From contig JAJFGZ010000006.1 of assembly GCA_021775855.1 (NCBI GenBank), positions 3,761 through 67,760 of the forward strand: a stretch of DNA of 64,000 bases. The letters are read 5' to 3'. Shown one piece after another: positions 826 through 16,500 of the stretch (positions are counted from its first letter, which is position 1; every line of letters begins with the position of its first letter). Under the pieces are notes generated by a model. The model searched no databases. It was given only the letters and a program-made list of their open reading frames with translations, and was not told the DNA's origin. Position numbers and translations under genes: made by a program. Source of the stretch: Hyphomicrobiales bacterium. GTDB lineage: Bacteria > Pseudomonadota > Alphaproteobacteria > Rhizobiales > NORP267.

Positions 826-2127
826 ATGAATAACCCAACACGGAAAAGAGGCATGCATCGCCGTGATTTTTTGTCTAGCACGGCGGCGATTACGCTCATG
901 GCCACGACCAGTTGGCCCAAAGTCGTATTTGGTGCGGAGGAGACCGTCAAGATTGGCTTTCTTGCTCCTTTGACGGGTCCCGTATCGGCATGGGGTAAAC
1001 CCGGTTTGGATGGTTGCCAAATCTGGGCTGACTGGGTCAACCAGGCTGGCGGTATCATGGTTGGCGGTCAAAGCCACAAGGTGGAGTTTATCGGCTATGA
1101 CAACGAATATGATGCCGGTAAGGCCCGCACCGGTGCGGCCAAACTGATCAAGGAAGATGGCGTCAAGTTTATCATGATGCTTGGTGGTGACACCTGGCCG
1201 GGCGTTCAGCCATTGGCTGCAAATGAGAATATGTTGGTATCGACCCTGCTGCCGTCTGATTTGACCCCGGAAACGGACATGCTGATTGCGCCGTGTGAAG
1301 TCCATCCAATTTACAATGTGACCGGTGTACAGTGGCTGGCGGAAAATTATCCTGATAAAAAGCGGGCCGTGATTTGCGCGCAGGACGATGCGTTGGGTAA
1401 ACCTTCGGTCGCGACTTATCTCGCCGCTTTCGAAGCAGCGGGAATCGAGGTTGTTGACGAGCCGTTGTTTTTTGATCCGGCCACCACTGACTTTGCCCCG
1501 GTTATGACCCGCCTGTTGTCGAGCGACCCGGATATTCTGTGTCTCGATACCAGCTACGCCGATTATGTGCATCCTTTGTGCGAACAGGCATTTCAACAGG
1601 ACTTCAAGGGAACCATTATTTCCTGTACAGCGGATTTCTACCCAAAGATTATCGAAAAAACCTCCAAGGAATTCATGGAAGGATTCATCTTCCAGTTCCC
1701 GGATTTCGATGACCCGGCGCTCAATGCGGATCAGGTTAACTTTCCGCGGCCAAACGAATTCTACGCCGAATACGCGAACCGGTACGGAGAGGCCGAATGG
1801 GGTGCTGTATCGTGGGAATATGCTTCGATCATGGACCTTTGGGCCGATGCTGCCATCAAGGCAGATTCGTTTGAGCCTGCCGACGTTCTGACAGCCATGA
1901 AAGATGGCGGCACCGGCAAGCATGCCTTTGGCGACGCCGATTGGTGGGGTGAAGAATTATTTGGTATCAACAATGCACTCGTGGGTGACTGGCCAGTGGT
2001 CGTCATCGAAGATGGCAAAGCTGTAATCAAAGAATACAAATCCATCCCGGCTTGGTGGGCGCAGCACAAGGATCTCCTGATCAAGCACTTCACTGATCTT
2101 GGCCAGATGTGGAATCAGCGTGGTTGA
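826..2127 (+). CDS. ABC transporter substrate-binding protein, branched-chain amino acid (LivK-like) family, Tat-exported
   Basis: RRDFL twin-arginine signal; VKIGFLAPLTGPVSAWG start of the PBP1 fold; followed by LivH/M/G/F-like genes; SD ggagg. Confidence 0.9.
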   Translation: MNNPTRKRGMHRRDFLSSTAAITLMATTSWPKVVFGAEETVKIGFLAPLTGPVSAWGKPGLDGCQIWADWVNQAGGIMVGGQSHKVEFIGYDNEYDAGKARTGAAKLIKEDGVKFIMMLGGDTWPGVQPLAANENMLVSTLLPSDLTPETDMLIAPCEVHPIYNVTGVQWLAENYPDKKRAVICAQDDALGKPSVATYLAAFEAAGIEVVDEPLFFDPATTDFAPVMTRLLSSDPDILCLDTSYADYVHPLCEQAFQQDFKGTIISCTADFYPKIIEKTSKEFMEGFIFQFPDFDDPALNADQVNFPRPNEFYAEYANRYGEAEWGAVSWEYASIMDLWADAAIKADSFEPADVLTAMKDGGTGKHAFGDADWWGEELFGINNALVGDWPVVVIEDGKAVIKEYKSIPAWWAQHKDLLIKHFTDLGQMWNQRG

Positions 2128-2167
2128 TTGGGTAATGTCGGGCGAATAGCACGCTTACCTCTTCTAA

Positions 2168-2199
2168 AACCGTTCCCCTTGTCGTAAAGGGGAACGGTT
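2168..2199 (+). terminator. 13-bp intercistronic hairpin (mRNA stabiliser or partial terminator)
   Basis: aaccgttcccctt-gtcgta-aaggggaacggtt perfect stem, no U tract, between binding protein and permease. Confidence 0.55.
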
Positions 2200-2250
2200 C
2201 CTCCTAGCCGGTTTCCCTATATTTGACCTGACGTGCGGTGCTATTTGGCC

Positions 2251-3120
2251 ATGTCCGAACTCATATTGCAGACAATCGTCAATTCCATTTACGCCGCCAG
2301 CTACATGTCGCTGATTGCTGTTGGGTTGGTTTTGATTTTCGGTGTGATGGGCGTTATCAATTTTGCACATGGCGAGTTGTATATGGCCGGAGCCTATACA
2401 GTCGTTGCGTTATATTCCGGGTTAAACCTTCCCTTTTTTGTTGCCGTGGTCGTCGGGATGGTTTTCGTTGGCCTTCTCGGGCTGGTGATGGAATATGCTT
2501 TCTTTCGAGCGTTAAGAGATAATCCGCTCGGTGGCCTGATCGCATCGATCGGGTTTTTATTGATATTACAGACAGTTGCTGTCCTCGGGTTTGGTGTGCG
2601 TATGGCTCATATCAGGCCATCGACGCAGGAAAAAATAGAGTTATTCGATGGCGTGTTGCTCACCCATCAACGCCTCTATGTGATTGTCGCGGCCATACTG
2701 CTTTTGACAGCGTTATATATTTTTTTGCGCAAGACCAAATTTGGCTGGGCCATGCGCGCCTGCGCCCAGGATACGGAAGCTGCGGCGCTACAGGGTATTT
2801 CTCTCAACCAGATCACGCGGATTGCTATGTTTATCGGTGCCGGGCTAGCTGGCGTTGTAGGCGCCTTGACCGCACCGCTTGTCAGTCCGACGCCCTATAT
2901 GGGGCATTCGATCATCGTCACTGCTTTCATCATTATCGTTGTTGGAGGCATCGGCCAGCTTGAAGGCGCGGTTGTGGCGGCCATCCTCTATGCGTTTGTG
3001 CATACTTTCGTGACTACATTCTTTGATGGTGTGGTCGCGGATATGGTTGGATTGGTGTTGATGCTCCTTGTGTTGGTGGTCAAGCCAACCGGATTGTTTG
3101 GAGCCAACGATCGTGTCTGA
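2251..3120 (+). CDS. ABC permease, LivH-like
   Basis: SLIAVGLVLIFGVMGVINFAHGELYMAGAY and TKFGWAMRA motifs; ATG 2251 preferred. Confidence 0.9.
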   Translation: MSELILQTIVNSIYAASYMSLIAVGLVLIFGVMGVINFAHGELYMAGAYTVVALYSGLNLPFFVAVVVGMVFVGLLGLVMEYAFFRALRDNPLGGLIASIGFLLILQTVAVLGFGVRMAHIRPSTQEKIELFDGVLLTHQRLYVIVAAILLLTALYIFLRKTKFGWAMRACAQDTEAAALQGISLNQITRIAMFIGAGLAGVVGALTAPLVSPTPYMGHSIIVTAFIIIVVGGIGQLEGAVVAAILYAFVHTFVTTFFDGVVADMVGLVLMLLVLVVKPTGLFGANDRV

Positions 3121-4117
3121 CAGCAAGACTACTATAACCGTGTGGATCTTTGCGTTGACATTGCTTGCAGGATTGCTGGTTTTGCCGCAGCTGCTTTCCT
3201 ATTCGCAGCGAGAAATTGCTGTATTTTTGATCATCAACGTTTTGCTCGTGGTTTCATATCGCTTGATGACGCTGACCGGGGAATGGTCGCTTGGTCATGT
3301 GGTGATAATGGGTGTTGGTGCCTATGCCAGCGCGTTGTTCTCCAAACGGTTGGGTGTGCCTGTGCCGCTCTCCATGTTTCTCGGTGCGAGTACGGCCGGA
3401 TTGACGGCGGTGGTCCTCAGTTTCCCGCTATTCCGCATGAAGGGGTTCTATTTCCTGATCGGGTCCTTCGCAGCTGGAGAGGTAATACGGCTGATCTGGA
3501 AATATTTTACATTTCCGTTTGGCGGCGCAAAGGGTTTGAATCTGATTCCCTCGTTCCCTGACATTGGCTGGATTTCGTTCTTTGATCCCGTAAACTATTA
3601 TTACCTTTGCCTGATTGTCGTGTCGGTAAGCCTGTTCATCCTGTACCGCGTTGAGCGCTCTCGTTTTGGCCTAACATTCCATGCTTTGCATTGGCAGGAC
3701 AAATTGGCAGAATCGGTTGGCGTGAATACCTTCCGGTATCGCATGCTGGCCTTTACATTGGCGTCGTTCTTCGCGGGCTTGTCCGGCGCGCTTTACGCGC
3801 ATTATATTGGCACCGTTAATCCGACACGCTTTGACGTGGAGGAAATGGTCTATGTTTTAATCTGGGCGATTGTCGGCGGGACAGCAACTTTCTACGGTCC
3901 AATCGTTGGTGTAGTGGCGTTGACCATCGTCAACGACGTCCTCCTGCGCGCTCTGGGTTTTGATACGATCCGGCCCATGATTTATGGTGCGGTTCTTATA
4001 GCCTCGGTGTTGTTTATGCCGGATGGTCTCGAGAGCATTTTTCCAAAACTCAAACGCCTGATGATGGGCAGGAAGACTGAGCCGGCGACGAAATCTGAAG
4101 CGGGGGAAATCCCATGA
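3113..4117 (+). CDS. ABC permease, LivM-like
   Basis: GEWSLGHVVIMGVGAY, RMKGFYFLIGSFAAGE, SRFGLTFHAL motifs; GTG overlaps upstream stop. Confidence 0.9.
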   Translation: MSDSKTTITVWIFALTLLAGLLVLPQLLSYSQREIAVFLIINVLLVVSYRLMTLTGEWSLGHVVIMGVGAYASALFSKRLGVPVPLSMFLGASTAGLTAVVLSFPLFRMKGFYFLIGSFAAGEVIRLIWKYFTFPFGGAKGLNLIPSFPDIGWISFFDPVNYYYLCLIVVSVSLFILYRVERSRFGLTFHALHWQDKLAESVGVNTFRYRMLAFTLASFFAGLSGALYAHYIGTVNPTRFDVEEMVYVLIWAIVGGTATFYGPIVGVVALTIVNDVLLRALGFDTIRPMIYGAVLIASVLFMPDGLESIFPKLKRLMMGRKTEPATKSEAGEIP

Positions 4118-4884
4118 CCCAACCGATCCTGGAGGTCTGTGATCTGTCGCGAAATTTTGGCGGCTTGTTGGCAGTAAACCAGCTTAGCTTCTCGGTCATA
4201 CCGGGCACAATCCATGGGATCATCGGCCCCAATGGTGCCGGTAAAACCACCACATTCAATGTGATCAGCGGGTTCTATGCACCAAGCAGCGGCCATGTGA
4301 CCTATCTGGGCAAAGACATATCCGGCATACGGACGGACAGGCTGGCCGAAATTGGTCTGATCCGCACCTTCCAGGGCACAACGCTGTTCAACGAGTTTTC
4401 AGTGATCGACAATGTTCGGCTCGGCTGCCACGTATCCGCCAAGTCTGGATTTTTAAGCCGCCTTTTAGGTGCTGACCGCGAATCTGAAGCGGTGGCGACA
4501 AAAAAAGCCGAGGATTTGCTGGCCTTTTTTAATCTTAGCGATCTGCGTGACGAGGAGGCGTCGAACCTTCCCCACGGCCACCAGCGTGCGTTGGGCATGG
4601 CGGTGGCATTGGCGGCCGATCCTAAAATACTCCTGCTGGATGAACCGTTCACGGGCATGAACCCGGAAGAAACGGCGCGGATGATGACACTTACCCGGGA
4701 TATCCGTGACCGCGGTATTACGGTCATGCTGGTCGAGCATGACATGCAGGCAGTAATGGGTTTGTGCGATATGATTACGGTCATGAATTTTGGATCGCTG
4801 CTTACCGAAGGCACGCCGAAAGAAGTGCGTACAAATCCTGGTGTGATCGAAGCCTATCTCGGGAGTGCCCACCATGCTTCTTGA
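4114..4884 (+). CDS. ABC ATP-binding protein, LivG-like
   Basis: Walker A GPNGAGKTT, LPHGHQR signature, LLLDEP Walker B, C-terminal VIEAYLG. Confidence 0.92.
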   Translation: MTQPILEVCDLSRNFGGLLAVNQLSFSVIPGTIHGIIGPNGAGKTTTFNVISGFYAPSSGHVTYLGKDISGIRTDRLAEIGLIRTFQGTTLFNEFSVIDNVRLGCHVSAKSGFLSRLLGADRESEAVATKKAEDLLAFFNLSDLRDEEASNLPHGHQRALGMAVALAADPKILLLDEPFTGMNPEETARMMTLTRDIRDRGITVMLVEHDMQAVMGLCDMITVMNFGSLLTEGTPKEVRTNPGVIEAYLGSAHHAS

Positions 4885-5581
4885 GATCAAAGATATCCAT
4901 GTGCATTACGGAAAAATCGCCGCGCTAAAGGGTGTTTCCATGGAGGTGCCGGAAGACGGAATTGTGACCATCATCGGTGCCAATGGCGCGGGCAAGAGCA
5001 CCACATTGCGTGCCATTTCGGGTCTTAGCAAAATATCCGCTGGTGAAATCTGGTTCGATGGCGAGCGTATTGACGCGCTCCCGCCAGAGAAAATTGTAGC
5101 CTGCGGCATCGCCCAGGTGCCGGAAGGCCGGCGCGTCTTTCCTGATCTTAGCGTAGAGGAAAATTTGCGCACAGGGGCGTTCTTGCGGAATGACAGGGTT
5201 GAGATTGATCACAGCCTGGAGCAGGTTTTTACACGATTTCCACGTCTAAAAGAGCGACGCAGCCAATGGGCGAAGACCCTTTCCGGCGGTGAGCAGCAAA
5301 TGGTGGCCATTGGCCGGGCTTTGATGTCGAAACCGCGCCTACTATTGCTGGATGAGCCGTCCATGGGTCTTGCGCCGGTAATAATTCAGGAGATTGTTCG
5401 TATCCTCGAAGATATCGTCGCTGATGGTGTGCCGGTTGTTCTGGTCGAGCAAAATGCGGAATTGGCGCTTTCTCTTGCCCGATACGCGTATGTATTGGAA
5501 ACTGGCTCGGTATCATTGGCCGGGATTGCAGAGGATTTGCATGAAAATGATCACGTCAAGAAAGCCTATCTAGGTGGCTGA
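4874..5581 (+). CDS. ABC ATP-binding protein, LivF-like
   Basis: GANGAGKST, LSGGEQQM, LLLDEPSMGLAP, VKKAYLGG. Confidence 0.92.
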   Translation: MLLEIKDIHVHYGKIAALKGVSMEVPEDGIVTIIGANGAGKSTTLRAISGLSKISAGEIWFDGERIDALPPEKIVACGIAQVPEGRRVFPDLSVEENLRTGAFLRNDRVEIDHSLEQVFTRFPRLKERRSQWAKTLSGGEQQMVAIGRALMSKPRLLLLDEPSMGLAPVIIQEIVRILEDIVADGVPVVLVEQNAELALSLARYAYVLETGSVSLAGIAEDLHENDHVKKAYLGG

Positions 5582-6167
5582 ATCTTGGGAGCTTCAAGAT
5601 CTGATCCGTGCCGGCTGGTCTGAAGATGACCTGAAATGGGAAGGTATTTTAGAAGAGTTTGCTGCCTTTTGGTTGGAATCCAAAGATCAGGATGCCCAGG
5701 ATGCAGCTGGCCGAGCGCTTTATCTGGCACGCGAATTTTTTAAGCCAAATGATCCTCGTCTCGGCACATCGCTTGCCAATTTTGGCTTATGTCTTGCTCA
5801 AAATGACAAAGAATCCGGTGCCCGTCTACTGGATGAAGCCCGACAGGTCTGGGAGCAAACGGGCCCATGGATTGAAACGATGAAGGCCTCCCGTGTTGCC
5901 CGGTCGTCGATGTTCCATCTACGAATGGAGTTACGTCACCGGGATGCATTTCGAGAAAACTGGCAGACGAAATGGCTTCAAATGGCCGAGGATGCAACCG
6001 CGCGTATCGCAAGTGCGGTTTCCGATTTTCCTCACGATGCAACCGCCGCTTCTTCTGCCGCCGAGCGTTGGCAGCGTGAACGGCCTGCCATGTTAAACGA
6101 TACCCGCAAGCTAATGGCGGCAGTTTTGCTGCTGCTGCCGGGCGTGGGAGAGCCACCCGCTTCGTGA
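5574..6167 (+). CDS. Hypothetical protein with TPR-like helical motif
   Basis: 197 aa; GTG overlaps the livF-like stop; DPRLGTSLANFGLCL resembles a TPR_12-type repeat. Confidence 0.6.
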   Translation: MAESWELQDLIRAGWSEDDLKWEGILEEFAAFWLESKDQDAQDAAGRALYLAREFFKPNDPRLGTSLANFGLCLAQNDKESGARLLDEARQVWEQTGPWIETMKASRVARSSMFHLRMELRHRDAFRENWQTKWLQMAEDATARIASAVSDFPHDATAASSAAERWQRERPAMLNDTRKLMAAVLLLLPGVGEPPAS

Positions 6168-6190: not shown

Positions 6191-7060
6191 CTATACGTCC
6201 CGCATCAGGTCGCGCTGTACGTCGGTAATATGGAGCTTGATAAACTCGACCGCGCTTTCGATATCGCGCGTACGGATCGCTTTATAGAGCGATTGGTGTC
6301 TCTTTTTATATTCTCTGATACGGTTTGGTGAGAGGGTTTTTTGGCGATTTTCCACGCCTGAAGAATCGCGCCGTACGATGATTACCATTTTGTAGAGCGA
6401 GCTCAGCAATGGATTATGGACGCCGGCCGCAAGGCACAGGAACAGCTCTTCGTCGCAGCGAGAGAATGCCGTCGCATCTGTGCTGATCATCTCCATGCGC
6501 TCGATGATTTTGCCCATTTTTGAGATATCTTTGTTGGACATATTGATAACAGCAAGTCTGGCTATTTCCGGCTCAAGTATGGACCGGACGACATTGAGTT
6601 CCAAAGGACTGGTCATCTGCGCCGTTTCGGCTATATCGATTGTTAGGCCGTCATCCGCTTCTATGATGGTTTCAAGATTATTCGCGACAGGGAATTCTCC
6701 GGCATTTTGCGCTGGTTCGGGTTGATTGTGGAAGCTTATAAATGTGCCACTACCAGGTCGCCGCGCAATAAGGCCAGAATCTTCCAGAATATCCAATCCT
6801 CTCCGTAATGTTGTTCGCGATACCGCAAACTCTTCGGCCAAATGACGTTCGGCCGGTAATCGCTCGCCATCGGTAAATTCCCCGATCAGGATGCGGGCGC
6901 CAAGTTTAAGTGCCAAAGATTTTGCAACGCCTCCCGAGTAATCCTGTAGCCCACCTGCATCCAGAGATTTCTGGACCGTCTTCAGCAATGTCTCGTTCAA
7001 GGCGAAGTCCTCCTTGCCTGCCAACAGGCGTGGGGAATGATTGGTGGACCAATTCGCCAC
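6191..7060 (-). CDS. GntR-family (FadR subfamily) transcriptional regulator; true start may lie downstream of 7060
   Basis: wHTH RLPAERHLAEEFAVSRTTLRRGLDILEDSGLIARRPGSGTF plus C-terminal FCD-type domain (LNVVRSILEPEIARLA...GVHNPLL). Confidence 0.9.
   Translation of the reverse strand: MANWSTNHSPRLLAGKEDFALNETLLKTVQKSLDAGGLQDYSGGVAKSLALKLGARILIGEFTDGERLPAERHLAEEFAVSRTTLRRGLDILEDSGLIARRPGSGTFISFHNQPEPAQNAGEFPVANNLETIIEADDGLTIDIAETAQMTSPLELNVVRSILEPEIARLAVINMSNKDISKMGKIIERMEMISTDATAFSRCDEELFLCLAAGVHNPLLSSLYKMVIIVRRDSSGVENRQKTLSPNRIREYKKRHQSLYKAIRTRDIESAVEFIKLHITDVQRDLMRDV
7040..7053. promoter_or_regulatory. FadR-subfamily-type palindromic operator
   Basis: ATTGGT-GG-ACCAAT perfect 6-bp inverted repeat at the 5' end of the regulator; weaker copy TTTaGT-AT-ACCAAA at 7235-7248. 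Confidence 0.55.
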
Positions 7061-7460: not shown

Positions 7461-9647
7461 ATGCCACGTGACCCAAAACATGATTGTTTGTTTGAGCCGA
7501 TAAAAATTGGCCCAAAGACAATGAAAAATCGGTTTTATCAAGTGCCCCATTGCATTGGTGCCGGCTCTGAAAAGCCTGGGACTCAAGCGCTTAATCGCGG
7601 CATGAAAGCTGAAGGTGGATGGGGTGCTTGCAACACCGAATATTGCTCGATCAGCCCTGAATCTGACGATACTCATCGTGTTTCCGCCCGCATTTGGGAT
7701 GATGGAGATGTAATTAATCTGCGCTATATGAACGACACCCTGCACAAGCATGGCTGCCTGGGCGGTATAGAAATGTGGTATGGCGGCCCGCATGCGCCAA
7801 ATCTGGAATCCCGCGCCGTTTCACGCGCGCCAAATGGTACCGCCTCTGAATTTGAATATCTGACCTATTCTCACGAGGCCGATGAAGACGATATCAAGGA
7901 CCTGATTAAACTCTATGGCGAGGCTGCAAAGCGCGCGGAACAGGCAGGGTTTGACATTGTCTATGTTTATGGCGGTCACTCCTACCTGCCACTCCAGTTC
8001 CTCTCACCGTTTTTTAATAAGAGGACCGACGGATACGGCGGCTCGTTGGAAAACCGGGCCCGCTTCTGGATCGAGGCCTTAACCGAGGTCAAAGAGGCTG
8101 TCGGCAGCACTTGCGCAATCGCCACCCGGCTTGCGATCGATACCCTTTATGGTCCTGGTAGCCTGGAAGTTGCTGACGATGGCCTGAAATTTGTTGAATT
8201 GGTCGCCAAGGAAGGTGTGCTGGATCTTTGGGACGTCAATATCGGCGATATCGCTGAATGGGGCGAAGATGCCGGACCTTCACGGTTCTACAAGGCTGGC
8301 CATCAACGGGCATGGACCAACGAAGTCAAGAAAATTTGCGACATCCCCGTGCTTGGCGTTAGCCGTGAAACCAGCGCTGACGATATGGCGGCTCATATAA
8401 CCTCCGGTCGTCTCGATATTATAGGCGCCGCACGTCCGTCAATTTCGGACCCGTTCCTCCCAAACAAAATTGACGAAGGCCGTATTGAGGATGTACGGGA
8501 ATGCATTGGCTGCAATGTTTGCATTTCTCGTTGGGAAATTGGCGGCCCGCCAATGGTCTGCACCCAGAACGCAACGGCAAACGAGGAATATCGCCGCGGC
8601 TGGCACCCTGAATCTTTCAACGCCGTCAAAACCGAAGAGTCGGTTCTGGTGGTTGGCGCTGGTCCTGCGGGTATGGAATGCGCCCGCGTCCTTGGCGAAC
8701 GCGGTTATGACGTGCATTTGCGTGAAGCCAGCAGCGAAATTGGTGGCTGCGTCAAGGATATCATGCGTTATCCCGGCCTGTCGGAATGGGGCCGCATTAC
8801 CTCCTACCGTCAGATCCAGTTGGACAAGCTGAAGAATGTAGAAGTCCATACCGGTGTAGGCGAAATGTCGGCGGATGATGTCCTGGAATATGGCGCCGAC
8901 AAGGTTGTCATTGCGACCGGGTCGCATTGGTCAACGACCGGGCTCAATTCTGTCAGCCACGATCCCGTCGAAGGGCTGGATGCGAGCAAGCCGTACATCT
9001 GCACACCAGAACAGGTGTTTCAGAAGAAAGAAGTCGGCAAGCGGGTTTTGGTGATCGATGGCGACGGGTATTTCACCGGCATCTCAATGGCTGAAATGCT
9101 GGTCGATCAGGGCAAGGAAGTGAATTTGGTCACTTCACTTGGCTCCGTTGCGCCTTACACGCACTTTACCCTCGAAGCGCCAAACTTGCACCGCATGATG
9201 TATGAAAAAGGTATCCACGAGAAAACCCTGCATTGGGTAGAGAAGGTAGAGGAGGGCGTTGCTACAATCTATTATCTCTATCGCGATGGATATAAGCGTG
9301 ACTCTGGCCCGACGCTCGGCAAAATGCCGCGTAGGGAAGGTACCGATGTCATCAAGATGGAATTCGATACCCTGATTTCTGTCACCGGACGGGTGCCCAA
9401 TGATCAGCTGTTTCGCGAGTTGCGGGCCCGTAAATCCGAATGGGAAGACAACGAAATCAAAGGCATTTATGCAGTTGGTGATTGTTATGCACCAGGTCTT
9501 TTGGCGGATGCGATTTTCTCTGGACATCGTATCGCGCGGGAATTCGAATCGAAGAATCCGCAGCATGCCCAGCCATGGATCCGTGAACGACAGGTTTGGG
9601 GCCATGAGACCTATCCCAAAATCAGCGATCGGGAGGTTCTCGGTTAG
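7461..9647 (+). CDS. tmd: Trimethylamine dehydrogenase (6-S-cysteinyl-FMN, 4Fe-4S, ADP-binding)
   Basis: Colinear with recalled Methylophilus TMADH: RDPKHD start, VPHCIG (flavinylated Cys30), TEYCS (Tyr60), VYVYGGHSY (Tyr169/His172), AEWGED (Trp264), CIGCNVCISRWEIGGPPMVC (4Fe-4S Cys, Trp355), VVGAGPAG. Confidence 0.9.
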   Translation: MPRDPKHDCLFEPIKIGPKTMKNRFYQVPHCIGAGSEKPGTQALNRGMKAEGGWGACNTEYCSISPESDDTHRVSARIWDDGDVINLRYMNDTLHKHGCLGGIEMWYGGPHAPNLESRAVSRAPNGTASEFEYLTYSHEADEDDIKDLIKLYGEAAKRAEQAGFDIVYVYGGHSYLPLQFLSPFFNKRTDGYGGSLENRARFWIEALTEVKEAVGSTCAIATRLAIDTLYGPGSLEVADDGLKFVELVAKEGVLDLWDVNIGDIAEWGEDAGPSRFYKAGHQRAWTNEVKKICDIPVLGVSRETSADDMAAHITSGRLDIIGAARPSISDPFLPNKIDEGRIEDVRECIGCNVCISRWEIGGPPMVCTQNATANEEYRRGWHPESFNAVKTEESVLVVGAGPAGMECARVLGERGYDVHLREASSEIGGCVKDIMRYPGLSEWGRITSYRQIQLDKLKNVEVHTGVGEMSADDVLEYGADKVVIATGSHWSTTGLNSVSHDPVEGLDASKPYICTPEQVFQKKEVGKRVLVIDGDGYFTGISMAEMLVDQGKEVNLVTSLGSVAPYTHFTLEAPNLHRMMYEKGIHEKTLHWVEKVEEGVATIYYLYRDGYKRDSGPTLGKMPRREGTDVIKMEFDTLISVTGRVPNDQLFRELRARKSEWEDNEIKGIYAVGDCYAPGLLADAIFSGHRIAREFESKNPQHAQPWIRERQVWGHETYPKISDREVLG

Positions 9648-9672
9648 TCCCGCATAGCGGTTCCATTATTTT

Positions 9673-9700
9673 CCGGTGTTCCAGAAAGCTGGAACACCGG
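9673..9700 (+). terminator. 12-bp intercistronic hairpin after tmd
   Basis: ccggtgttccag-aaag-ctggaacaccgg perfect stem, no U tract. Confidence 0.55.
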
Positions 9701-9782
9701 CGCTTGCGCGTAATTTTGTGCTTTTCATTATCTACAACGCGGCGTTGAAGACCTTGAAAGCCTTTGTGGACGGAGACGTCGG

Positions 9783-12700
9783 GTGGAAACGCGTGAATTA
9801 TTCTGGTCCCTGAAAACGCCCTCGGTGGTGGTTTTCTATGCTTTTGGGCTTGCTACGATTGCATTATTTATTTGGGGTTGCTGGAGGCATTACGCGAAAT
9901 ATCGACGCGGCACGGCCCCGGTCACTGCCATTGATCTGATCGCTGGGGTCAGACGAATGGTTGCCGATTTGATAACCCATCGCACGCTTGTGCGCCGCGA
10001 TAAGTATGCTGGCTATGCCCATGCCGGGATTTTCTTCGGCTTTGTCATCGCTGCGCTCGGCACCGCCACCATCACACTTGAATATGATATTCTCGAGCCG
10101 CTGTTCGGGATCACGTTCTGGCATGGGGATTTCTACCTCTTGTTCAGCTTGCTCCTCGACCTTGGTCATTTGGCGCTATTTCTCGGGCTCCTGATGATGA
10201 TTGTCCGCCGCTTGTTTTTCAGTCTGGACAAGCTTGACTATCGACGCAGCTACAGAGGGGATAGTGAACTTCGAACGTCAGCAAAAACATGGCGTATTGA
10301 AGACTGGATATTCTTATCCACTCTGCTGCTGATCGAGATAACCGGGTTTGTTCAGGAGGCTGTCCGCCTGCTTATGGATAAACCTGAATGGGCCTCATGG
10401 TCTCCGGTTGGATTGTTGCTGGCGAACGGGTTTGCAGTCCTTGGCATGTCTGATGCCACGGCTGCCGCGATCCGCGGTGCTAATTGGTGGATCCACGGCG
10501 TGCTGGCGCTCGCATTTACTGCGGCCATTCCCTGGTACAAGGCCAAGCACATCATCGCCGTGGTCGGTTCGCTGGCGATGCGTGCTGAAAAACCTCTTGC
10601 CCGTTTGACGCGAGAAGGTGAAGCCCGGCAAAGTAGCGGGATTGCCGATGTCTCGCAGTTTTCCTGGAAAGACATGTTGAATTTCGACGCCTGCACAAAG
10701 TGCGGGCGGTGTCATGAAGCGTGTCCTGCGCAGATTGCCGGATTTCCCTTGAGCCCGCGCGACTTTATTCTCGATCTGCGCACCCACAATGACAAAATGC
10801 AGGGCCGTCCGGATGAAGCGGTTCAGCTTATTGGCGATATCATCGCCCCTGAGACTTTGTGGGCGTGCCGTATGTGTGGGGCGTGTCAGGAAATTTGTCC
10901 TGTTGGAATCGAGCATCCGGCGATCATCGTACAAATGCGCCGCCAATTGGTGGAGCGTGGCGACATGGACCCGCTACTGCAAGGAACCCTCGATACCATT
11001 GCAAGCACCGGTAACAGTTTTGGCGAAAGCGCGCGCAAACGCAGCGCCTGGACGCGCGAACTGGAATTCAAGGTCAAAGATATTCGCGAAGTGGCCGCAG
11101 AAAACCTCTGGTTCGTTGGAGACTATGCGTCTTTCGACCCGCGCAACCAGCAGGTTAGTCGCGCTTTTGCCTCCCTGATGAAACACACCAAAACCGATTT
11201 TGCACTGCTGCATGAAGGCGAACGCAATGCCGGCAATGATGTTCGACGGGTTGGTGAAGAGGGGCTTTTTGAAACCCTGGTCGAGAGCAATTTACAGGCA
11301 ATGACCGGCGTCAAACAATTTTCAAAAATAATTACAACCGACCCCCACAGCTACAATACGATTAAAAACGAATATCCGGAATTCGGTGATGTTGCGCCTA
11401 TCGAACATTATACTTCGATCCTTGATGACCTCCTCAAATCCGGTCGGTTGAAGGTCACCAAGCCGCTCAGCAAGAAAGTGACGTTTCACGATCCGTGCCA
11501 TCTTGGCCGGTTGAATGGTGGCTATGATGCGCCACGCCACGTACTGGAAGCTATCGGCTGTGAAATTGTCGAGATGCCGCGCAACCGCGACAATTCGTTT
11601 TGCTGCGGTGCCGGGGGAGGGCGTATCTGGATTCCCGATCCGCCTGGAAAAGAAAAGCCATCCGAAAATCGTATGCGCGAGGCAGCAGGTCTCGGTGGCA
11701 TCGACATTTTTGTGACCTGCTGTCCAAAGGACCTGACCATGTTCGAAGACGCGCGTAAAACCAGCGGCCACGAAGCCGATTTTCTAGTCCGGGATATCGC
11801 CGAACTGGTGGCCGAAGCTATTGAGTTGAACGAGATTTCGCTGCAGGACATGCCATCGCTTGCCGAGCGTATTACAGACGCCGTGGCGACCCGCGTCGCA
11901 GATGTAGTTGGCGCCCGTCTGGAGAACGTACTTTCTTCCAAACTAGATGGGTTGGCCAGTATACCAGCGCCTGCCAAACCTGCCGAAATTCCTTCGGAAC
12001 CTAAGGAACCATCATCCACCACTCCAGAAACTGTGCAGGCGCGTATCACAGCGCCTGAAGTCGATGAGGATGTGCAGACTTCCACCCCAGAAGCGGAATT
12101 GCCGGCGTTGACAGCGATGGATTGGGACAGCCTGGCCCCTGTGCGTCTGGTCCCGTATGAGGGGTATGAGGCACCTGAGAAATCAACTTTGCGTATTTTG
12201 GTGACGGTGAAACACACAGCAAAACTCGGCGATGAATATGAATTTACAGCTGATACACGCGATGTGGCCGGGGAGTATCTTGAATACGATCTAAATGAAT
12301 GGGACGACGCGGCGTTGGAACAGGCGTTGCTTCTTGTAGAGGCCCATGGTGACGGCGAAGTGGTTGCTGTTTCGGTTGGTCCCGAAGAAGTTGAAAAGTC
12401 CCTCCGCAAGGTTCTCGCCAAGGGCGCCGATCGGGCGGTGCGTATCTGGGACGATAGGCTTCGGATCGCCGATCCGGTGACCATTGCCCGAGCAATTGCT
12501 GGCGTTGCCGCTGCTGAGCAACCTGACCTGATTTTAACGGGGACACAGTCTTCAGACCATGCTCACGGCTCTACTGGCACGGCGCTGGCACGTATTCTCG
12601 ATCTTCCCCATAGCTCGGTTATCGTCGAAGTCGAGCCGCAAGACGAGGGCGTCATCAACGTGACCCGCGAACTTGAAGGCGGAACCCGTCACGTGCTGCA

Positions 12701-12956
12701 GATGTCGATGCCTGCGGTCCTCGCTATCCAGACCGGAACCAACACACCGCGCTATGCGACGATGCGGATGATCAAACAAGCCAAGAAGAAGCCTCTTGAC
12801 GTGCTCGATGGTGCGCCAATTGTCGATGGATCCGGGGGGTACCGGGTACGACGCATGTACACCCCGATTCAGGAAAAGGCACAAATGCTCGAAGGGTCGG
12901 CGGAAGAGGTTGCGGCAAAAGTCGCCGAGCTTATCCGCGACATTAGGGGAGAATAA
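9783..12956 (+). CDS. Membrane heme-b/Fe-S oxidoreductase (FadF/EMO-like: TM domain, 2x4Fe-4S, CCG domains) fused to electron transfer flavoprotein beta subunit
   Basis: TM helices with His in YAHAGIFFGF, WWIHG, KAKHI; CTKCGRCHEACP and CRMCGACQEICP; FHDPCHLGR...FCCGAGGG; P/E/T-rich linker; from ~12189 ETF-beta (RILVTVKH, YDLNEWDD, LAKGADRAVRIWD, GTQSSD, RELEGG, PRYA). Confidence 0.88.
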   Translation: METRELFWSLKTPSVVVFYAFGLATIALFIWGCWRHYAKYRRGTAPVTAIDLIAGVRRMVADLITHRTLVRRDKYAGYAHAGIFFGFVIAALGTATITLEYDILEPLFGITFWHGDFYLLFSLLLDLGHLALFLGLLMMIVRRLFFSLDKLDYRRSYRGDSELRTSAKTWRIEDWIFLSTLLLIEITGFVQEAVRLLMDKPEWASWSPVGLLLANGFAVLGMSDATAAAIRGANWWIHGVLALAFTAAIPWYKAKHIIAVVGSLAMRAEKPLARLTREGEARQSSGIADVSQFSWKDMLNFDACTKCGRCHEACPAQIAGFPLSPRDFILDLRTHNDKMQGRPDEAVQLIGDIIAPETLWACRMCGACQEICPVGIEHPAIIVQMRRQLVERGDMDPLLQGTLDTIASTGNSFGESARKRSAWTRELEFKVKDIREVAAENLWFVGDYASFDPRNQQVSRAFASLMKHTKTDFALLHEGERNAGNDVRRVGEEGLFETLVESNLQAMTGVKQFSKIITTDPHSYNTIKNEYPEFGDVAPIEHYTSILDDLLKSGRLKVTKPLSKKVTFHDPCHLGRLNGGYDAPRHVLEAIGCEIVEMPRNRDNSFCCGAGGGRIWIPDPPGKEKPSENRMREAAGLGGIDIFVTCCPKDLTMFEDARKTSGHEADFLVRDIAELVAEAIELNEISLQDMPSLAERITDAVATRVADVVGARLENVLSSKLDGLASIPAPAKPAEIPSEPKEPSSTTPETVQARITAPEVDEDVQTSTPEAELPALTAMDWDSLAPVRLVPYEGYEAPEKSTLRILVTVKHTAKLGDEYEFTADTRDVAGEYLEYDLNEWDDAALEQALLLVEAHGDGEVVAVSVGPEEVEKSLRKVLAKGADRAVRIWDDRLRIADPVTIARAIAGVAAAEQPDLILTGTQSSDHAHGSTGTALARILDLPHSSVIVEVEPQDEGVINVTRELEGGTRHVLQMSMPAVLAIQTGTNTPRYATMRMIKQAKKKPLDVLDGAPIVDGSGGYRVRRMYTPIQEKAQMLEGSAEEVAAKVAELIRDIRGE

Positions 12957-12958
12957 TC

Positions 12959-13924
12959 ATGGCAGGTATCCTTGTCGTTGCGGAGCAACTGGATGGCGCA
13001 TTACGCGATATTTCGTCGGAATTGATTGGTGCGGCTAATTCCATCAAAGGTGAAATTGATGGACCACTTCAGGTGTTGATCGTTGGTCAGAATGTCGAAG
13101 ACCTCGCCAACAAGATCAATCTGGATGGTATCGATGATATTTTTACGCTGGAAATGCCCGACAATCATTTCGATCCGCTGGTATATGAAGAAGCCATCTG
13201 CAGCCTGGGTGCAGATCTGAAACCGGGCATCATTCTCATCGGCCACACCGTCAGTGGAATGGGTTACGGCGCGGCTGTTGCGGCGCGGCTTGGGTCCGGT
13301 TTTGCCAGCGACGTGATTGCTCTTGCGATGGACGGGGACGATCTCGTCGCCACCCGCAGTGCCTATGGCAACAAGGTGGAGATGGAGTTGGGTTTCCCCG
13401 GCAAGGGCGTTGTCGTGCTCACACTACGCGGCGCCACGTTTGCACCGCCGGAGGGTGATGGGAACGCAAAAATTTCACCGGCCGAAATCGATCTGACAAT
13501 GCTGGAAGGCGTTTCGACTCATGTGGAATTTCAGGAGGCCCCGCCGTCCGACATTGATATAACCAAGGCCGATTTCATCCTCTCGGTGGGACGCGGTATT
13601 CAGGATCAGGATAACCTGCCGCGCTTTGAAGCACTTGCCGATAAACTCGGCGCTACCTTTGGCTGCTCGCGGCCAATTGTCGATGCGGGATGGTTGCCAA
13701 AACCCCACCAGGTTGGCCAGTCGGGCAAAGTCGCTTCAAATTGCCAACTTTATTTTGCCCTCGGTATTTCAGGTGCAGTCCAACACCTGTTCGGAATGAA
13801 GCATATCGATACCATTATCGCGGTCAATACCGACCCCGATGCGCCCATTTTCAACGTGGCAACTTACGGCACCACCATCGATCTGTTTGAACTGACTGAT
13901 GCGTTGGAGCGCCACTTCAACTGA
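12959..13924 (+). CDS. etfA: Electron transfer flavoprotein alpha subunit
   Basis: ILVVAEQ start; SVGRG, GCSRPIVDAGW, QVGQSGK, GISGAVQHLFGM, IAVNTDPDAPIF FAD-binding motifs. Confidence 0.95.
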   Translation: MAGILVVAEQLDGALRDISSELIGAANSIKGEIDGPLQVLIVGQNVEDLANKINLDGIDDIFTLEMPDNHFDPLVYEEAICSLGADLKPGIILIGHTVSGMGYGAAVAARLGSGFASDVIALAMDGDDLVATRSAYGNKVEMELGFPGKGVVVLTLRGATFAPPEGDGNAKISPAEIDLTMLEGVSTHVEFQEAPPSDIDITKADFILSVGRGIQDQDNLPRFEALADKLGATFGCSRPIVDAGWLPKPHQVGQSGKVASNCQLYFALGISGAVQHLFGMKHIDTIIAVNTDPDAPIFNVATYGTTIDLFELTDALERHFN

Positions 13925-13960: not shown

Positions 13961-15061
13961 ATGAACGAAGGTACCCGACACTCCGTACTCGCTGATCGCC
14001 ACCGCGCGCTTGGTTCTGATCTTGGTGACTGGAACGGAATGGGCGTCGCGTGGGACTATGCCAGCGACCCATGCGATGAGCACGATGCGGTGCGCACCGC
14101 CGCCGGCCTGTTCGATGTTTCTGGCCTGAAAAAGGTATTCGTACAGGGTCCCGATGCTGGTGCCGTTGTGGATCATGTTATCACGCGAAATATGAAAGTT
14201 ATCACCCCCGGACGCTCGGCCTATGGTCCGAACCTGACCGAACAGGGAACTATTTGCGACGATGCGATTGTCTTTAACCTGGGTGGTGGCAAATGGATGG
14301 TCGTGCATGGATCGGGAAGTTGCATGGAGATGCTGCAAGAATCGGCAGCCGGCAAAAACGTCGATATCGAATTCGACGACGATCTCCACGACATTTCATT
14401 GCAGGGACCGAAATCTACCGAATTCCTCAATGCGCATACTCCATTCGATCTGGCCGGCCTGAAATATTTTCATCAGGAAGAGACCGAATTGTTCGGTCAT
14501 CCGGTGATTATTTCTCGCACCGGGTATTCAGGTGAACGGGGGTACGAGATATTCGCCGGGGCGGATCGTGTAGGCGATATCTGGGATCAGATTATTGGCC
14601 AGGGTAAGGCCGAAGGCATCATGCCATGTTCTTTCACCTGCCTCGACAAAATCCGTGTCGAAGCGGCCCTGTTATTTTACCCATACGACATGACCGAGGC
14701 GAACAGCCCATGGGAAGTTGGTCTTGGCTGGGCAATCACGACCAAAGGTGACGATTTTCGTGGTCGTGCAGCGGTCATGGATCTCAAGGGCAAGGAAAAG
14801 ATCAAGGTCGTTGGTATTAGCGCCGATCATGACGGTATTCTTGCTGGCGAAGAAAAACTGAAGCTGGATGGCAAGGAGGTTGGCGTTGTCAATTCTCCAG
14901 CCTATTCTCATCGCATGAAAAAATCTCTTGCTCTTGCACATGTTACGCCGGACGCAGCCGCACCCGGCACTCAGCTGCGTGTAGAAGGGGATATTTCCTG
15001 CGATGCGATAGTTGAAGCAACGCCTTTCTATGACCCGGATAAAACCCGGACCCATGGATAA
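13961..15061 (+). CDS. Stand-alone aminomethyltransferase (GcvT/T-protein family, folate-binding)
   Basis: GLFDVSGL, DDAIV, ISLQGPKS, SRTGYSGERGYEI, DKIRVEAALLFY, SLALAHV, TPFYDP; no gcvH/gcvP in the window. Confidence 0.88.
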   Translation: MNEGTRHSVLADRHRALGSDLGDWNGMGVAWDYASDPCDEHDAVRTAAGLFDVSGLKKVFVQGPDAGAVVDHVITRNMKVITPGRSAYGPNLTEQGTICDDAIVFNLGGGKWMVVHGSGSCMEMLQESAAGKNVDIEFDDDLHDISLQGPKSTEFLNAHTPFDLAGLKYFHQEETELFGHPVIISRTGYSGERGYEIFAGADRVGDIWDQIIGQGKAEGIMPCSFTCLDKIRVEAALLFYPYDMTEANSPWEVGLGWAITTKGDDFRGRAAVMDLKGKEKIKVVGISADHDGILAGEEKLKLDGKEVGVVNSPAYSHRMKKSLALAHVTPDAAAPGTQLRVEGDISCDAIVEATPFYDPDKTRTHG

Positions 15062-15117: not shown

Positions 15118-16500
15118 ATGAACGCATTGGACACGGCCAGGGCCAGGTATCGGGCCAACAGTGTCAGATGGGGTTATATCTGGGCGCTGTGGTGCGCTGT
15201 TTTGTGGGGCATCTGGTATATTCCAGGCACCGCGCTGTGGAGCGAGGCGCCCTACAGCACTATGAGTTTCGATACTACGGGCGAGTTATTGCTCAGCGCT
15301 GCCGTGATAACCGCGTTTAGCGCCGTCAGCGTGCTGATTTTCCTGTTTATATGGCTGGCGGTGCTGGAGAAATTTGGCGAATTCCGGCGAACCGTGAAAC
15401 GATTTTCTTCGATCTCCAAATGGTATTTTTTGGCTGCCATTTTTGGCGGTCCTTGTGCTCTTTTCGGGGCTTACCTTGCTATCGGATTTGTAGGGCCGAT
15501 CTTTGCGGCCGTCGCCTCGCTGCTTTACCCTATTGTCGGGGCTACGCTTGCCCGATTGTGGTACAATGAGATCATTACCCAGCGTGCTGCCATCGGCATC
15601 GGCTTGATCGTTACCAGCGGCATTGCGATCTTTTTGCCCGGGTTATTCTCTGAATCCGCCGGTGCCGGAGATACAGCGTGGATCGGCTATCTCGGCGGTG
15701 CTGTGTCGGCAATTGGGTGGGGGTTTGAGGGCGCAATTGTCGGTCGCGCACTCGATGTATCCGACGCCGATGTTGGCATTACCATTCGTTTTACCGCCGA
15801 GGTCCTGTTCTGGGTTTTTCTGATACTCCCCGCCGCGGTAATATTTTTTGACGCCCCTGTTATCCCTGTGGCGTTGGCAACGTTTAATTTTTGGGCCATC
15901 ATCTGGGTCTTGCTCGCAGGCCTCAGTTATGGGTTTTCCTATGTTGCCTGGTATAAATCGTTCCCGCTGATCGGCGTTGGGCGCGGGCAGGCAATCGCTG
16001 CGCTGCATACTGTTTTTGCAGTTGTCTTCCTCGCCGTTTTTGCTTTTCAATTCCCGAGCTGGAATTTTCTTGTCGGACTGGCGCTCGCCGTGGCGGGCAC
16101 TTTTTTAATGGTCAGTGAAGATAGCAAGGTAGTCGAAGTGGTGCGACAGCCTCCTGCAAAAGAATTGACGGCCCGCACTCGCAGAAACAAGACTGCGTGT
16201 GTGTCGAAGGGTGGCCTGCACATGAAAGGTTACATATTGAGATTGCTGATGGAAGCCGGAGAGTCAGGGGTCTGGGATTACGAGATCATGACTTCGGTAT
16301 TTGCCGAATATGGTTACAGCGGAAGCTATTGGAAGGGCGAAGTTCGCGCTACCCTGACAGATCTTTATTCAGGTGCGCTGATCGAGGAAATAGAAGACGA
16401 TCTCGATGATGGCGGGTCATTTGGAATTGGTAAGATCCTGATAAAATTCAGGATAAGCGCATTTGGCACCCAGCGCATTGCCGAAACCGGCCTGATATGA
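15118..16500 (+). CDS. DMT-superfamily permease resembling methanogen MttP, with a fused ~90-aa soluble C-terminal domain
   Basis: About 10 hydrophobic segments; WALWCAVLWGIWYIPGT, GWGFEGAI, WYKSFPLIGVGRGQ match my recollection of MttP; hydrophilic domain from in-frame ATG 16222. Confidence 0.75.
   Translation: MNALDTARARYRANSVRWGYIWALWCAVLWGIWYIPGTALWSEAPYSTMSFDTTGELLLSAAVITAFSAVSVLIFLFIWLAVLEKFGEFRRTVKRFSSISKWYFLAAIFGGPCALFGAYLAIGFVGPIFAAVASLLYPIVGATLARLWYNEIITQRAAIGIGLIVTSGIAIFLPGLFSESAGAGDTAWIGYLGGAVSAIGWGFEGAIVGRALDVSDADVGITIRFTAEVLFWVFLILPAAVIFFDAPVIPVALATFNFWAIIWVLLAGLSYGFSYVAWYKSFPLIGVGRGQAIAALHTVFAVVFLAVFAFQFPSWNFLVGLALAVAGTFLMVSEDSKVVEVVRQPPAKELTARTRRNKTACVSKGGLHMKGYILRLLMEAGESGVWDYEIMTSVFAEYGYSGSYWKGEVRATLTDLYSGALIEEIEDDLDDGGSFGIGKILIKFRISAFGTQRIAETGLI

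Follow-up and report, generated by a model that had tools for sequence, protein, structure and literature searches.

The 64,000-nucleotide stretch of Hyphomicrobiales DNA analysed here (GCA_021775855.1, contig JAJFGZ010000006.1, positions 3,761 to 67,760; hereafter the window) carries a gene, etfD-etfB, that encodes in a single uninterrupted frame of 1057 amino acids (aa) a predicted membrane quinone oxidoreductase of the EtfD/EMO/FadF/DgcB family and, behind a long linker, the complete beta subunit of an electron-transfer flavoprotein (ETF). The fused gene lies between tmd, for a predicted trimethylamine dehydrogenase (TMADH), and etfA, for the ETF alpha subunit, and the locus probably encodes a dedicated module in which ETF is tethered to its own EtfD/DgcB-type quinone oxidoreductase. 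Every component family is known and the electron path from ETF to EtfD is structurally documented; the covalent EtfD-EtfB architecture, its conserved linker motif and the link to a TMADH-type enzyme in ubiquinone-using Alphaproteobacteria are new.

Domain architecture of the fused protein

The fused frame begins with a GTG codon preceded at 8 nt by GGAGA, and its N-terminus, METRELFW, is common to the orthologues. The protein consists of three parts, an EtfD/EMO/DgcB-type domain, a linker region of ~120 residues and a complete ETF-beta. Pfam matches comprised a Fer4 dicluster domain (residues 295-376), a CCG domain (566-648) and an ETF domain (833-1009), and the same scan returned no canonical ETF:quinone oxidoreductase (ETF-QO) domain (PF05187). 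In PDB sequence searches, residues 286-742 matched Mycobacterium smegmatis EtfD (9ojn_A; 219 bits with phmmer, 323 bits by profile) and residues 803-1056 matched the full-length ETF-beta of Methylophilus methylotrophus W3A1 (1o94_C, chain residues 1-263; 216 bits). An AlphaFold2 model built on 45 orthologues, with a mean predicted local distance difference test score (pLDDT) of 76, combines five long membrane-spanning helices with a helical Fe-S domain and an ETF-beta fold. Foldseek ranked 9ojn first against this model (E = 2.6e-33, target TM-score 0.75) and W3A1 ETF-beta second (45-46% identity, target TM-score 0.79-0.87), so that EtfD 9ojn is the best PDB match of the protein in both sequence and fold. 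Reading frame, domain matches, PDB search and model thus confirm the claim of a first-pass annotation that one uninterrupted frame joins a membrane oxidoreductase to ETF-beta, and the sequence, profile and fold matches to 9ojn bear out its assignment of the N-terminal part to the FadF/EMO-like family.

The transmembrane helices of the model span residues 12-41, 74-108, 115-145, 165-199 and 224-252. Three histidines, H80, H238 and H256, are invariant in the 45 orthologues, the set to which all residue counts below refer, and in a profile alignment to 9ojn they correspond to His78, His223 and His241 of M. smegmatis EtfD, of which His78 and His241 are the axial ligands of its single heme b (PMC13083937). 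R143 aligns with Arg137, which contacts the heme propionate, and F245 with Phe230 of the quinone site. These same three histidines are reported to be conserved across the EMO family (bioRxiv 10.64898/2026.08.18.745454), in agreement with the three candidate heme-ligating motifs proposed from the sequence at first pass. H80 and H238 were considered as the proximal heme pair and rejected, since the profile alignment yields H80 and H256, with H238 as the third histidine of the family. In Syntrophus EMO this third histidine ligates a distal 'twin heme' that is not present in the mycobacterial enzyme (bioRxiv 10.64898/2026.08.18.745454), and judging from the alignment the fused protein may hold either one heme or three.

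The cysteines of both CxxCxxCxxxCP motifs (C304, C307, C310, C314, C362, C365, C368 and C372) are kept in every orthologue and match the D3/D4 ligands of 9ojn in position; together with the Fer4 matches they uphold the two clusters that had been predicted. The prediction of CCG domains stood in part. Two CCG-type domains are present, but cysteine ligands are intact only in the second: in the first, D447, N482, D520 and S523 stand in for M. smegmatis Cys503, Cys538, Cys581 and Cys584 in 45/45 fused orthologues. EtfD/EMO in the strict sense carries two cluster-bearing CCG domains, whereas here the first lacks its four cysteines. The D1 cysteines are reported to be missing also in the subgroup of DgcB and FadF (PMC13083937), and since they are lost while a single cluster site is kept, the Fe-S part of the fusion is of the DgcB/FadF rather than the mycobacterial/Syntrophus type. 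The second CCG domain, which retains H522, C572, C607, C608 and C647, is likely the point of electron entry. Asp650 is invariant at the position of the fifth cysteine, and a neighbouring additional cysteine, C646, occurs in 43/45 orthologues. The last CCG motif (residues 646-650, nt 11718-11732) accordingly reads CCPKD, or SCPKD in 2/45 orthologues; its counterpart is GCPxC in EtfD and CPKC in the split sister lineage described below.

Between the two enzymes, the first-pass annotation had proposed a flexible arm of ~90 residues. A disordered Ala/Pro-rich stretch (725-770) does exist, but the arm also includes a helix (693-724) and an ordered motif (771-802). The helical segment carries the sequence LAERITDAVAxRIAxVVAxRLDEVL, conserved in most orthologues and missing in several. 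Model pLDDT falls below 50 over residues 719-769, and the variable part of the linker, composed of 27% Ala, 21% Pro and 9% Glu, ranges from 17 to 84 aa. The motif immediately before ETF-beta, in which W781 and P786 are invariant, is modelled confidently (pLDDT 73-87 over residues 771-800, against less than 40 just upstream). It is not found in the EtfB of the split sister lineage and is present in a free EtfB of one further genome (G340). Ala/Pro-rich composition, variable length and disorder in the AlphaFold2 model support the view that the linker would act as a flexible arm.

The ETF-beta part is complete from ~12189, as had been claimed, with the C-terminal arm included, and the ETF recognition loop PRYATMRMIKQAKKKPL is conserved. 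The proposed resemblance of both ETF subunits to the TMADH-partner ETF of Methylophilus likewise holds, the W3A1 pair being closest (216 and 300 bits for ETF-beta and ETF-alpha, respectively), whereas bifurcating EtfB proteins matched much more weakly (49-66 bits). With AMP-containing ETFs as its closest relatives, the fused ETF-beta would be expected to bind AMP and not a second FAD.

Distribution and origin of the fusion

Assembled Logan contigs from four biofilm-metagenome runs span window positions 11500-12500 without a mismatch, the depth being 20-34x for two runs, and none of the four assemblies places a stop or frameshift in the linker. These runs belong to one study, possibly including the source sample, and have limited weight as independent evidence, so that the case against an artefact depends chiefly on conservation in orthologues. 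The fused architecture was found in at least 120 clusters at 90% identity, all of 995-1088 aa and with the same set of Pfam domains; these are the 120 best matches in a collection of 5.8 billion proteins, 58-78% identical to the window protein, and include Rhodobacteraceae, Roseovarius, Mesorhizobium, Hyphomicrobium, Kiloniellales and Rhodospirillales. Orthologues with a single frame come from isolates as well as metagenomes, including closed-quality contigs longer than 1 Mb, and bear the JGI label 'Fe-S oxidoreductase/electron transfer flavoprotein alpha/beta subunit'.

An even sample of 401 species genomes of Alphaproteobacteria yielded about seven (~2%) with a fused orthologue, from at least six families: five carry the fused form (G000, G057, G068, G088 and G143) and two a truncated one (G121 and G262). 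Some ten further genomes of this sample encode an unfused EtfD/DgcB-like protein at 33-42% identity. One apparent split by a TGA codon, in G057, was dismissed, as the listing of reading frames gives a single frame of 1013 aa. A phylum-wide genome sample added one fused genome already known (G007) and two unfused matches. Neither of two other genomes of the same genus was found to contain the fused locus, which thus appears to be accessory. Homologues are therefore not always split, a whole clade being fused, and by sequence comparison the fusion is neither rare nor unique and defines a populous clade of single origin. The number and spread of the fused orthologues mark the fusion as being under selection.

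The comparison of fused and unfused clusters was based on 50% clustering over 1.84 billion representatives, in which only two full-length fused clusters (P0042 and P0122) stand beside more than 140 listed unfused clusters of 640-750 aa. A phylogeny of the EtfD parts unites every fused protein in one clade (SH-aLRT 99), to which the unfused cluster P0124 is sister. Multiple independent fusions were considered and rejected, because the sole 'split' entry within the clade, P0123, is a fragment starting at query residue 402. The P0124 locus (L010) is ordered TMADH, EtfD (722 aa), a 47-nt gap, EtfB (263 aa, MKILV...) and EtfA. Its TMADH and EtfB score 1299 and 340 bits against W3A1 TMADH and ETF-beta, respectively, and it adjoins genes of the N-methylglutamate pathway. 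The single fused clade and its split tmd-etfD-etfB-etfA sister operon indicate that the fusion arose once, by joining of adjacent genes. Relative to the split proteins, the fused form has ~120 extra residues, comprising the helix, the Ala/Pro-rich stretch and the Trp/Pro motif, and frame and linker have persisted while identity within the clade fell to 47-58%.

Gene context varies within the clade. The divergent fused cluster P0122 adjoins a 690-aa histamine-dehydrogenase-like enzyme (L008 4644-6716), a JGI metagenome contig of P0113 places three TMADH-family paralogues (731-735 aa) beside one fused module, and in Mesorhizobium sophorae (L002 8001-12173) the fused gene and etfA have no adjacent TMADH-family gene. 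These differing contexts suggest that the fused module serves the wider amine-dehydrogenase family, and one tethered ETF may serve several amine dehydrogenases. The neighbours in M. sophorae are genes for an aminotransferase, a SIS-domain regulator, an ABC transporter and N-formylglutamate-amidohydrolase-like proteins.

Proposed electron route and alternative readings

The upstream tmd product aligns with W3A1 TMADH (1djn_A) with Cys30, Tyr60, Ser74, Trp105, Trp264, Trp355 and the four 4Fe-4S cysteines all kept. Cys30 forms the covalent 6-S-cysteinyl link to flavin mononucleotide (FMN), Tyr60, Trp264 and Trp355 make up the aromatic cation bowl, and Ser74 and Trp105 are of the trimethylamine (TMA) type; dimethylamine dehydrogenase reportedly has Gln60, Thr74 and Phe105. 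On the strength of this alignment the upstream gene is a true TMADH with a TMA-type pocket, which agrees with the client enzyme named by the first-pass annotation. A dimethylglycine system of the DgcA/DgcB type was rejected for this locus, because the gene of the old yellow enzyme (OYE) family found here matches TMADH at 963 bits and shows the pocket of the TMA type.

In the draft genome, of 3.14 Mb in 88 contigs, the TMADH family and the EtfD type are represented by a single gene each. Contig C49 carries another etfB-etfA pair, a housekeeping one (~32% identity), and contig C34 a canonical ETF-QO, the sole PF05187 match of the genome. Since the genome has this housekeeping pair and ETF-QO, the fused module looks dedicated to TMADH and the fused enzyme a parallel, dedicated route. 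UbiG was found above its cut-off and no match in the genome reached the cut-off for MenD, which makes ubiquinone the likely acceptor.

ETF is the textbook diffusible carrier that links many dehydrogenases to one membrane acceptor. In the module we propose, EtfA, the product of the translationally coupled next gene, would assemble on the tethered EtfB. Soluble TMADH would oxidise trimethylamine and pass electrons singly from its 4Fe-4S cluster to the FAD of ETF, which would use EtfB to dock on the cytoplasmic Fe-S domain belonging to the same polypeptide. The FAD domain would then swing towards the single non-cubane cluster in the second CCG domain, and from there electrons would reach quinone, most likely ubiquinone, by way of both cubane clusters and heme b. 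Owing to the flexible arm, a single ETF could visit TMADH and its own acceptor in turn while staying at the membrane, and the tether would fix a 1:1:1 stoichiometry and recruit TMADH to the membrane. General ETF traffic would be left to the housekeeping EtfAB and ETF-QO; with a carrier and acceptor of its own for that traffic and a single client for the tethered ETF, the cell could afford the tether. In this scheme, the route of the electrons, the shuttling, which quinone is reduced and how many hemes take part are all inferred.

The shuttling part, put forward at first pass as a tethered swinging arm, draws support from the variable Ala/Pro-rich linker and from structures of EtfB docking. In the Syntrophus complex, solved by cryo-electron microscopy (2026 preprint), ETF binds EMO exclusively via EtfB, and a rotation of ~60 degrees brings its FAD domain as close as 12-13 A to the non-cubane clusters; the EMO:ETF complex is transient, and no ternary complex with the donor dehydrogenase was seen (bioRxiv 10.64898/2026.08.18.745454). 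In 1O94 it is again the beta subunit that anchors ETF, there on TMADH, with the FAD domain left to sample positions (PMC8097209). We are nonetheless less confident that ETF shuttles, as opposed to residing in a static supercomplex, than that it is tethered.

Several observations weigh against a tethered module of this kind. The type of the non-cubane cluster is uncertain, given the replacement of its fifth cysteine ligand by Asp650. Split relatives apparently work without a tether, so that any benefit of the fusion may be kinetic or lie in assembly and be modest. Genome G340 encodes a free EtfB of 300 aa (L006 5798-6700, minus strand) directly after a TMADH-like gene, with an N-terminal tail that combines an Ala/Pro-rich stretch with the Trp/Pro motif WRAEPVTPAALPGYDVPDK; with no EtfD found there at E <= 1e-45, the tether seems dispensable in that genome. 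This EtfB is probably the result of secondary fission or loss of the membrane part. Two surface residues of the window TMADH differ from W3A1 (Val344 to Glu and Tyr442 to Arg), at positions that in W3A1 lie on the electron exit route and are implicated in transfer to ETF; these changes may have co-evolved with the tethered ETF. ETF-beta may also be released by proteolysis after translation, and as the sequence occurs in DNA runs only and in no RNA runs, the 116-kDa product is a predicted one.

A rather unlikely alternative is that ETF stays docked on its own EtfD, the fusion serving mainly co-assembly and stoichiometry. TMADH would then bind a complex already assembled at the membrane, and the sole moving part would be the FAD domain of EtfA, between the 4Fe-4S cluster of TMADH and the non-cubane cluster of EtfD. 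The conserved, confidently modelled motif at residues 771-802 suggests a fixed docking element within the arm and would fit such an arrangement, as would the translational coupling of etfA and the fact that rotation of the ETF FAD domain alone is an established gating motion. However, EtfB anchors ETF to both TMADH and EMO, which together with the missing ternary Syntrophus complex points to alternating binding, and a static assembly would not need a disordered linker of 17-84 aa.

It is doubtful that the fused clade forms a distinct respiratory enzyme class, a membrane-anchored 'amine dehydrogenase:quinone' entry module with its own docking motif, distal heme(s) and reduction of ubiquinone on the periplasmic face. 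The Trp/Pro motif may then act as a novel docking element by which the tethered ETF is positioned, and H238, the equivalent of the distal twin-heme ligand of Syntrophus, may mean that distal heme(s) are kept and ubiquinone is reduced on the periplasmic side, where membrane potential may help to draw electrons from the unusually high-potential semiquinone of a TMADH-type ETF. If true, this would identify the physiological acceptor of the W3A1 TMADH-ETF system, as close relatives have an EtfD gene between tmd and etfB.

We consider it quite improbable that the fusion is genetic only and that free ETF-beta is produced from an internal start (TTG 12189 or ATG 12117) or by proteolysis of the linker, the system then working as split operons do. 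Split relatives exist, disordered linkers are prone to proteolysis, and residue 803, encoded by TTG 12189, aligns exactly with Met1 of W3A1 ETF-beta. Across the orthologues, however, this position is occupied by Pro (18), Leu (15), Val (5), Ser (2), Ile (2), Arg (2) and Ala (1), so that in 23/45 the codon at the ancestral EtfB start (Pro, Ser, Arg or Ala) is unable to initiate, and free EtfB is accordingly not a conserved product. Neither candidate start has a well-placed Shine-Dalgarno sequence: the nearest GAGG, a weak and distant one, lies 18-28 nt upstream of TTG 12189, and none was found before ATG 12117 in the window. The internal start raised at first pass was on these grounds rejected as a conserved feature, and the retention of frame and linker across the diverged clade further argues against a purely genetic fusion. 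Finally, an assembly or stop-loss artefact that wrongly joined two neighbouring genes of a metagenome-assembled genome deserves almost no credence, for although the draft is fragmented into 88 contigs and the sister lineage keeps the genes separate, the contigs of four runs are identical at depths of up to 34x, and an error shared by more than 120 single-frame orthologues is implausible at 47-79% identity.

Related systems and neighbouring genes

The fused protein shares with EtfD/EMO (9OJN, PMC13083937; Syntrophus EMO) the five-helix NarI-like domain, the three histidines, the two cubane motifs, a CCG module resembling HdrD and a cytoplasmic Fe-S 'wire' linking ETF with heme b and quinone; in each case the genes lie beside etfBA. 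It differs in having ETF-beta within the same polypeptide, in the loss of the cysteines of the first CCG domain, in the Asp at the fifth cysteine position, and in a predicted client that is an amine dehydrogenase instead of acyl-CoA dehydrogenases, in a host with ubiquinone and not menaquinone. M. smegmatis EtfD has a 30-kDa disordered C-terminal tail predicted to hold ETF non-covalently (PMC13083937), whereas the tail of the fusion ends in ETF itself. DgcB of Pseudomonas aeruginosa, from dimethylglycine catabolism, and FadF of Bacillus subtilis also belong to the EtfD subgroup without D1 cysteines but, compared by description, are stand-alone proteins of ~650-700 aa with a very short C-terminal tail or none (PMC13083937).

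The closest solved relatives of TMADH, ETF-beta and ETF-alpha are those of W3A1 (1O94, 1O96 and 1DJN; 963, 216 and 300 bits), with which the window proteins share the TMA pocket, Cys30, the 4Fe-4S ligands, the ETF recognition loop and the motifs of the FAD domain. W3A1 ETF-beta, unlike the fused subunit, is a free protein of 264 aa, and in the W3A1-like locus L010 a separate EtfD gene lies between tmd and etfB, the gene that in the window is fused to etfB. DgcB is said to work with DgcA, an N-demethylating enzyme of the OYE/TMADH family, with etf genes nearby. Canonical ETF-QO (FAD and 4Fe-4S, monotopic, PF05187) does the same job, reoxidising ETF and reducing quinone, and is not homologous. 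The lipoyl swinging arms of 2-oxo-acid dehydrogenase E2 components have Ala/Pro-rich linkers that tether a carrier domain between active sites. The fusion linker resembles them, by analogy only, in Ala/Pro/Glu composition and variable length; E2 is an unrelated protein, and the unit tethered here is a whole heterodimeric flavoprotein in place of a small cofactor domain.

A literature search that reached few subscription journals found no described EtfD-EtfB or DgcB-ETF fusion. A single-client ETF covalently tied to its acceptor would be a natural experiment on diffusion, docking and stoichiometry, and as a naturally stabilised ETF:EtfD complex the fusion could aid structures of ETF docking and of the single-cluster DgcB/FadF subgroup, for which we know of no solved structure. 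The presence of an EtfD-type enzyme between tmd and etfB, in split and fused operons alike, points to the acceptor of the TMADH-specific ETF, and we found no paper stating that an EtfD-type enzyme has this role. EtfD-type enzymes have so far been studied in menaquinone-using bacteria and in fatty-acid oxidation; the present locus would extend them to ubiquinone-using Alphaproteobacteria and to the oxidation of methylated amines, with a bearing on TMA turnover in marine and biofilm settings. Database names such as '4Fe-4S dicluster domain-containing protein' and 'heterodisulfide reductase-related' mask this function.

The features of the locus are collected in Table 1.

Table 1. Coordinates of the fused gene, its parts and its neighbours (window positions)
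Feature	Position	Strand	Evidence
HAAT/Liv-type ABC transporter: binding protein, two permeases, two ATPases	826-5581	+	Pfam Peripla_BP_6, BPD_transp_2 x2, ABC_tran x2
GntR/FCD-family regulator, divergent from tmd	6191-7060	-	Pfam GntR + FCD
tmd, predicted trimethylamine dehydrogenase (FMN, 4Fe-4S, ADP-type fold)	7461-9647	+	963 bits to 1djn_A over 715 aa
Perfect 12-bp GC-rich stem-loop in 135-nt tmd-etfD spacer	9673-9700	+	hairpin CCGGUGUUCCAG/CUGGAACACCGG (CCGGTGTTCCAG...CTGGAACACCGG)
etfD-etfB fusion gene	9783-12956	+	single uninterrupted ORF, 1057 aa
NarI-like five-helix membrane domain, residues 1-265 (predicted heme b and quinone site)	9783-10577	+	AlphaFold2, alignment
Two CxxCxxCxxxCP motifs, residues 295-376, predicted two cubane [4Fe-4S] clusters	10665-10910	+	Pfam Fer4_8/9/10
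First CCG-like domain, residues ~438-530, without Cys (no D1 cluster)	11094-11372	+	alignment to 9ojn
Second CCG domain, residues 566-650, predicted non-cubane [4Fe-4S] site	11478-11732	+	Pfam CCG, 58.8 bits
Helical segment, first part of arm, residues 683-724	11829-11954	+	AlphaFold2 helix 693-724, low pLDDT
Disordered Ala/Pro/Glu/Thr-rich linker, residues 725-770	11955-12092	+	pLDDT 31-39
Pre-ETF motif MDWDxLxPVxPAxLxxYxxPxKxG, residues 771-802	12093-12188	+	orthologue alignment
Complete ETF-beta, residues 803-1057	12189-12956	+	1o94_C 216 bits; Pfam ETF 117 bits; Foldseek
etfA, ETF-alpha (FAD-binding subunit)	12959-13924	+	2 nt after fusion stop; Pfam ETF + ETF_alpha; 300 bits to 1o94_D
GcvT-like folate-binding aminomethyltransferase	13961-15061	+	Pfam GCV_T + GCV_T_C
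EamA/DMT-type permease, 460 aa, last gene of the cluster	15118-16500	+	Pfam EamA, 39 bits

The etfA gene adjoins the fused gene in every orthologous locus compared, and the motif CSRPIxDAGWLPK...QVGQSGK of its FAD domain is conserved. The spacer between tmd and the fused gene (9648-9782) folds as RNA with a minimum free energy of -48.8 kcal/mol (z = -3.2); its stem-loop is a possible partial terminator or stabiliser and could set the ratio of TMADH to EtfD-ETF expression. Upstream, the Liv-type ABC transporter, counterparts of which also precede tmd in a Roseovarius locus (L001), probably serves substrate uptake, and the GntR/FCD gene is present in the Hyphomicrobium and Roseovarius loci as well. 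An ORF of 197 aa (5574-6167) between the ABC ATPase and regulator genes belongs to no confident family, with a weak TPR_12 match, and has a counterpart of 36% identity in the same place in Roseovarius (L001 5120-5626).

Downstream of etfA, the GcvT-like protein may trap the formaldehyde-level one-carbon unit derived from TMA as methylene-tetrahydrofolate. Orphan GcvT-like genes are syntenic with the TMADH/ETF module in several genera, as seen in three further loci (L001 12186-13277, L003 16968-18077 and L005 7335-8000). The EamA-type permease is likewise present in Hyphomicrobium (L003) and is 67% identical and syntenic in Roseovarius (L001 13372-14742).

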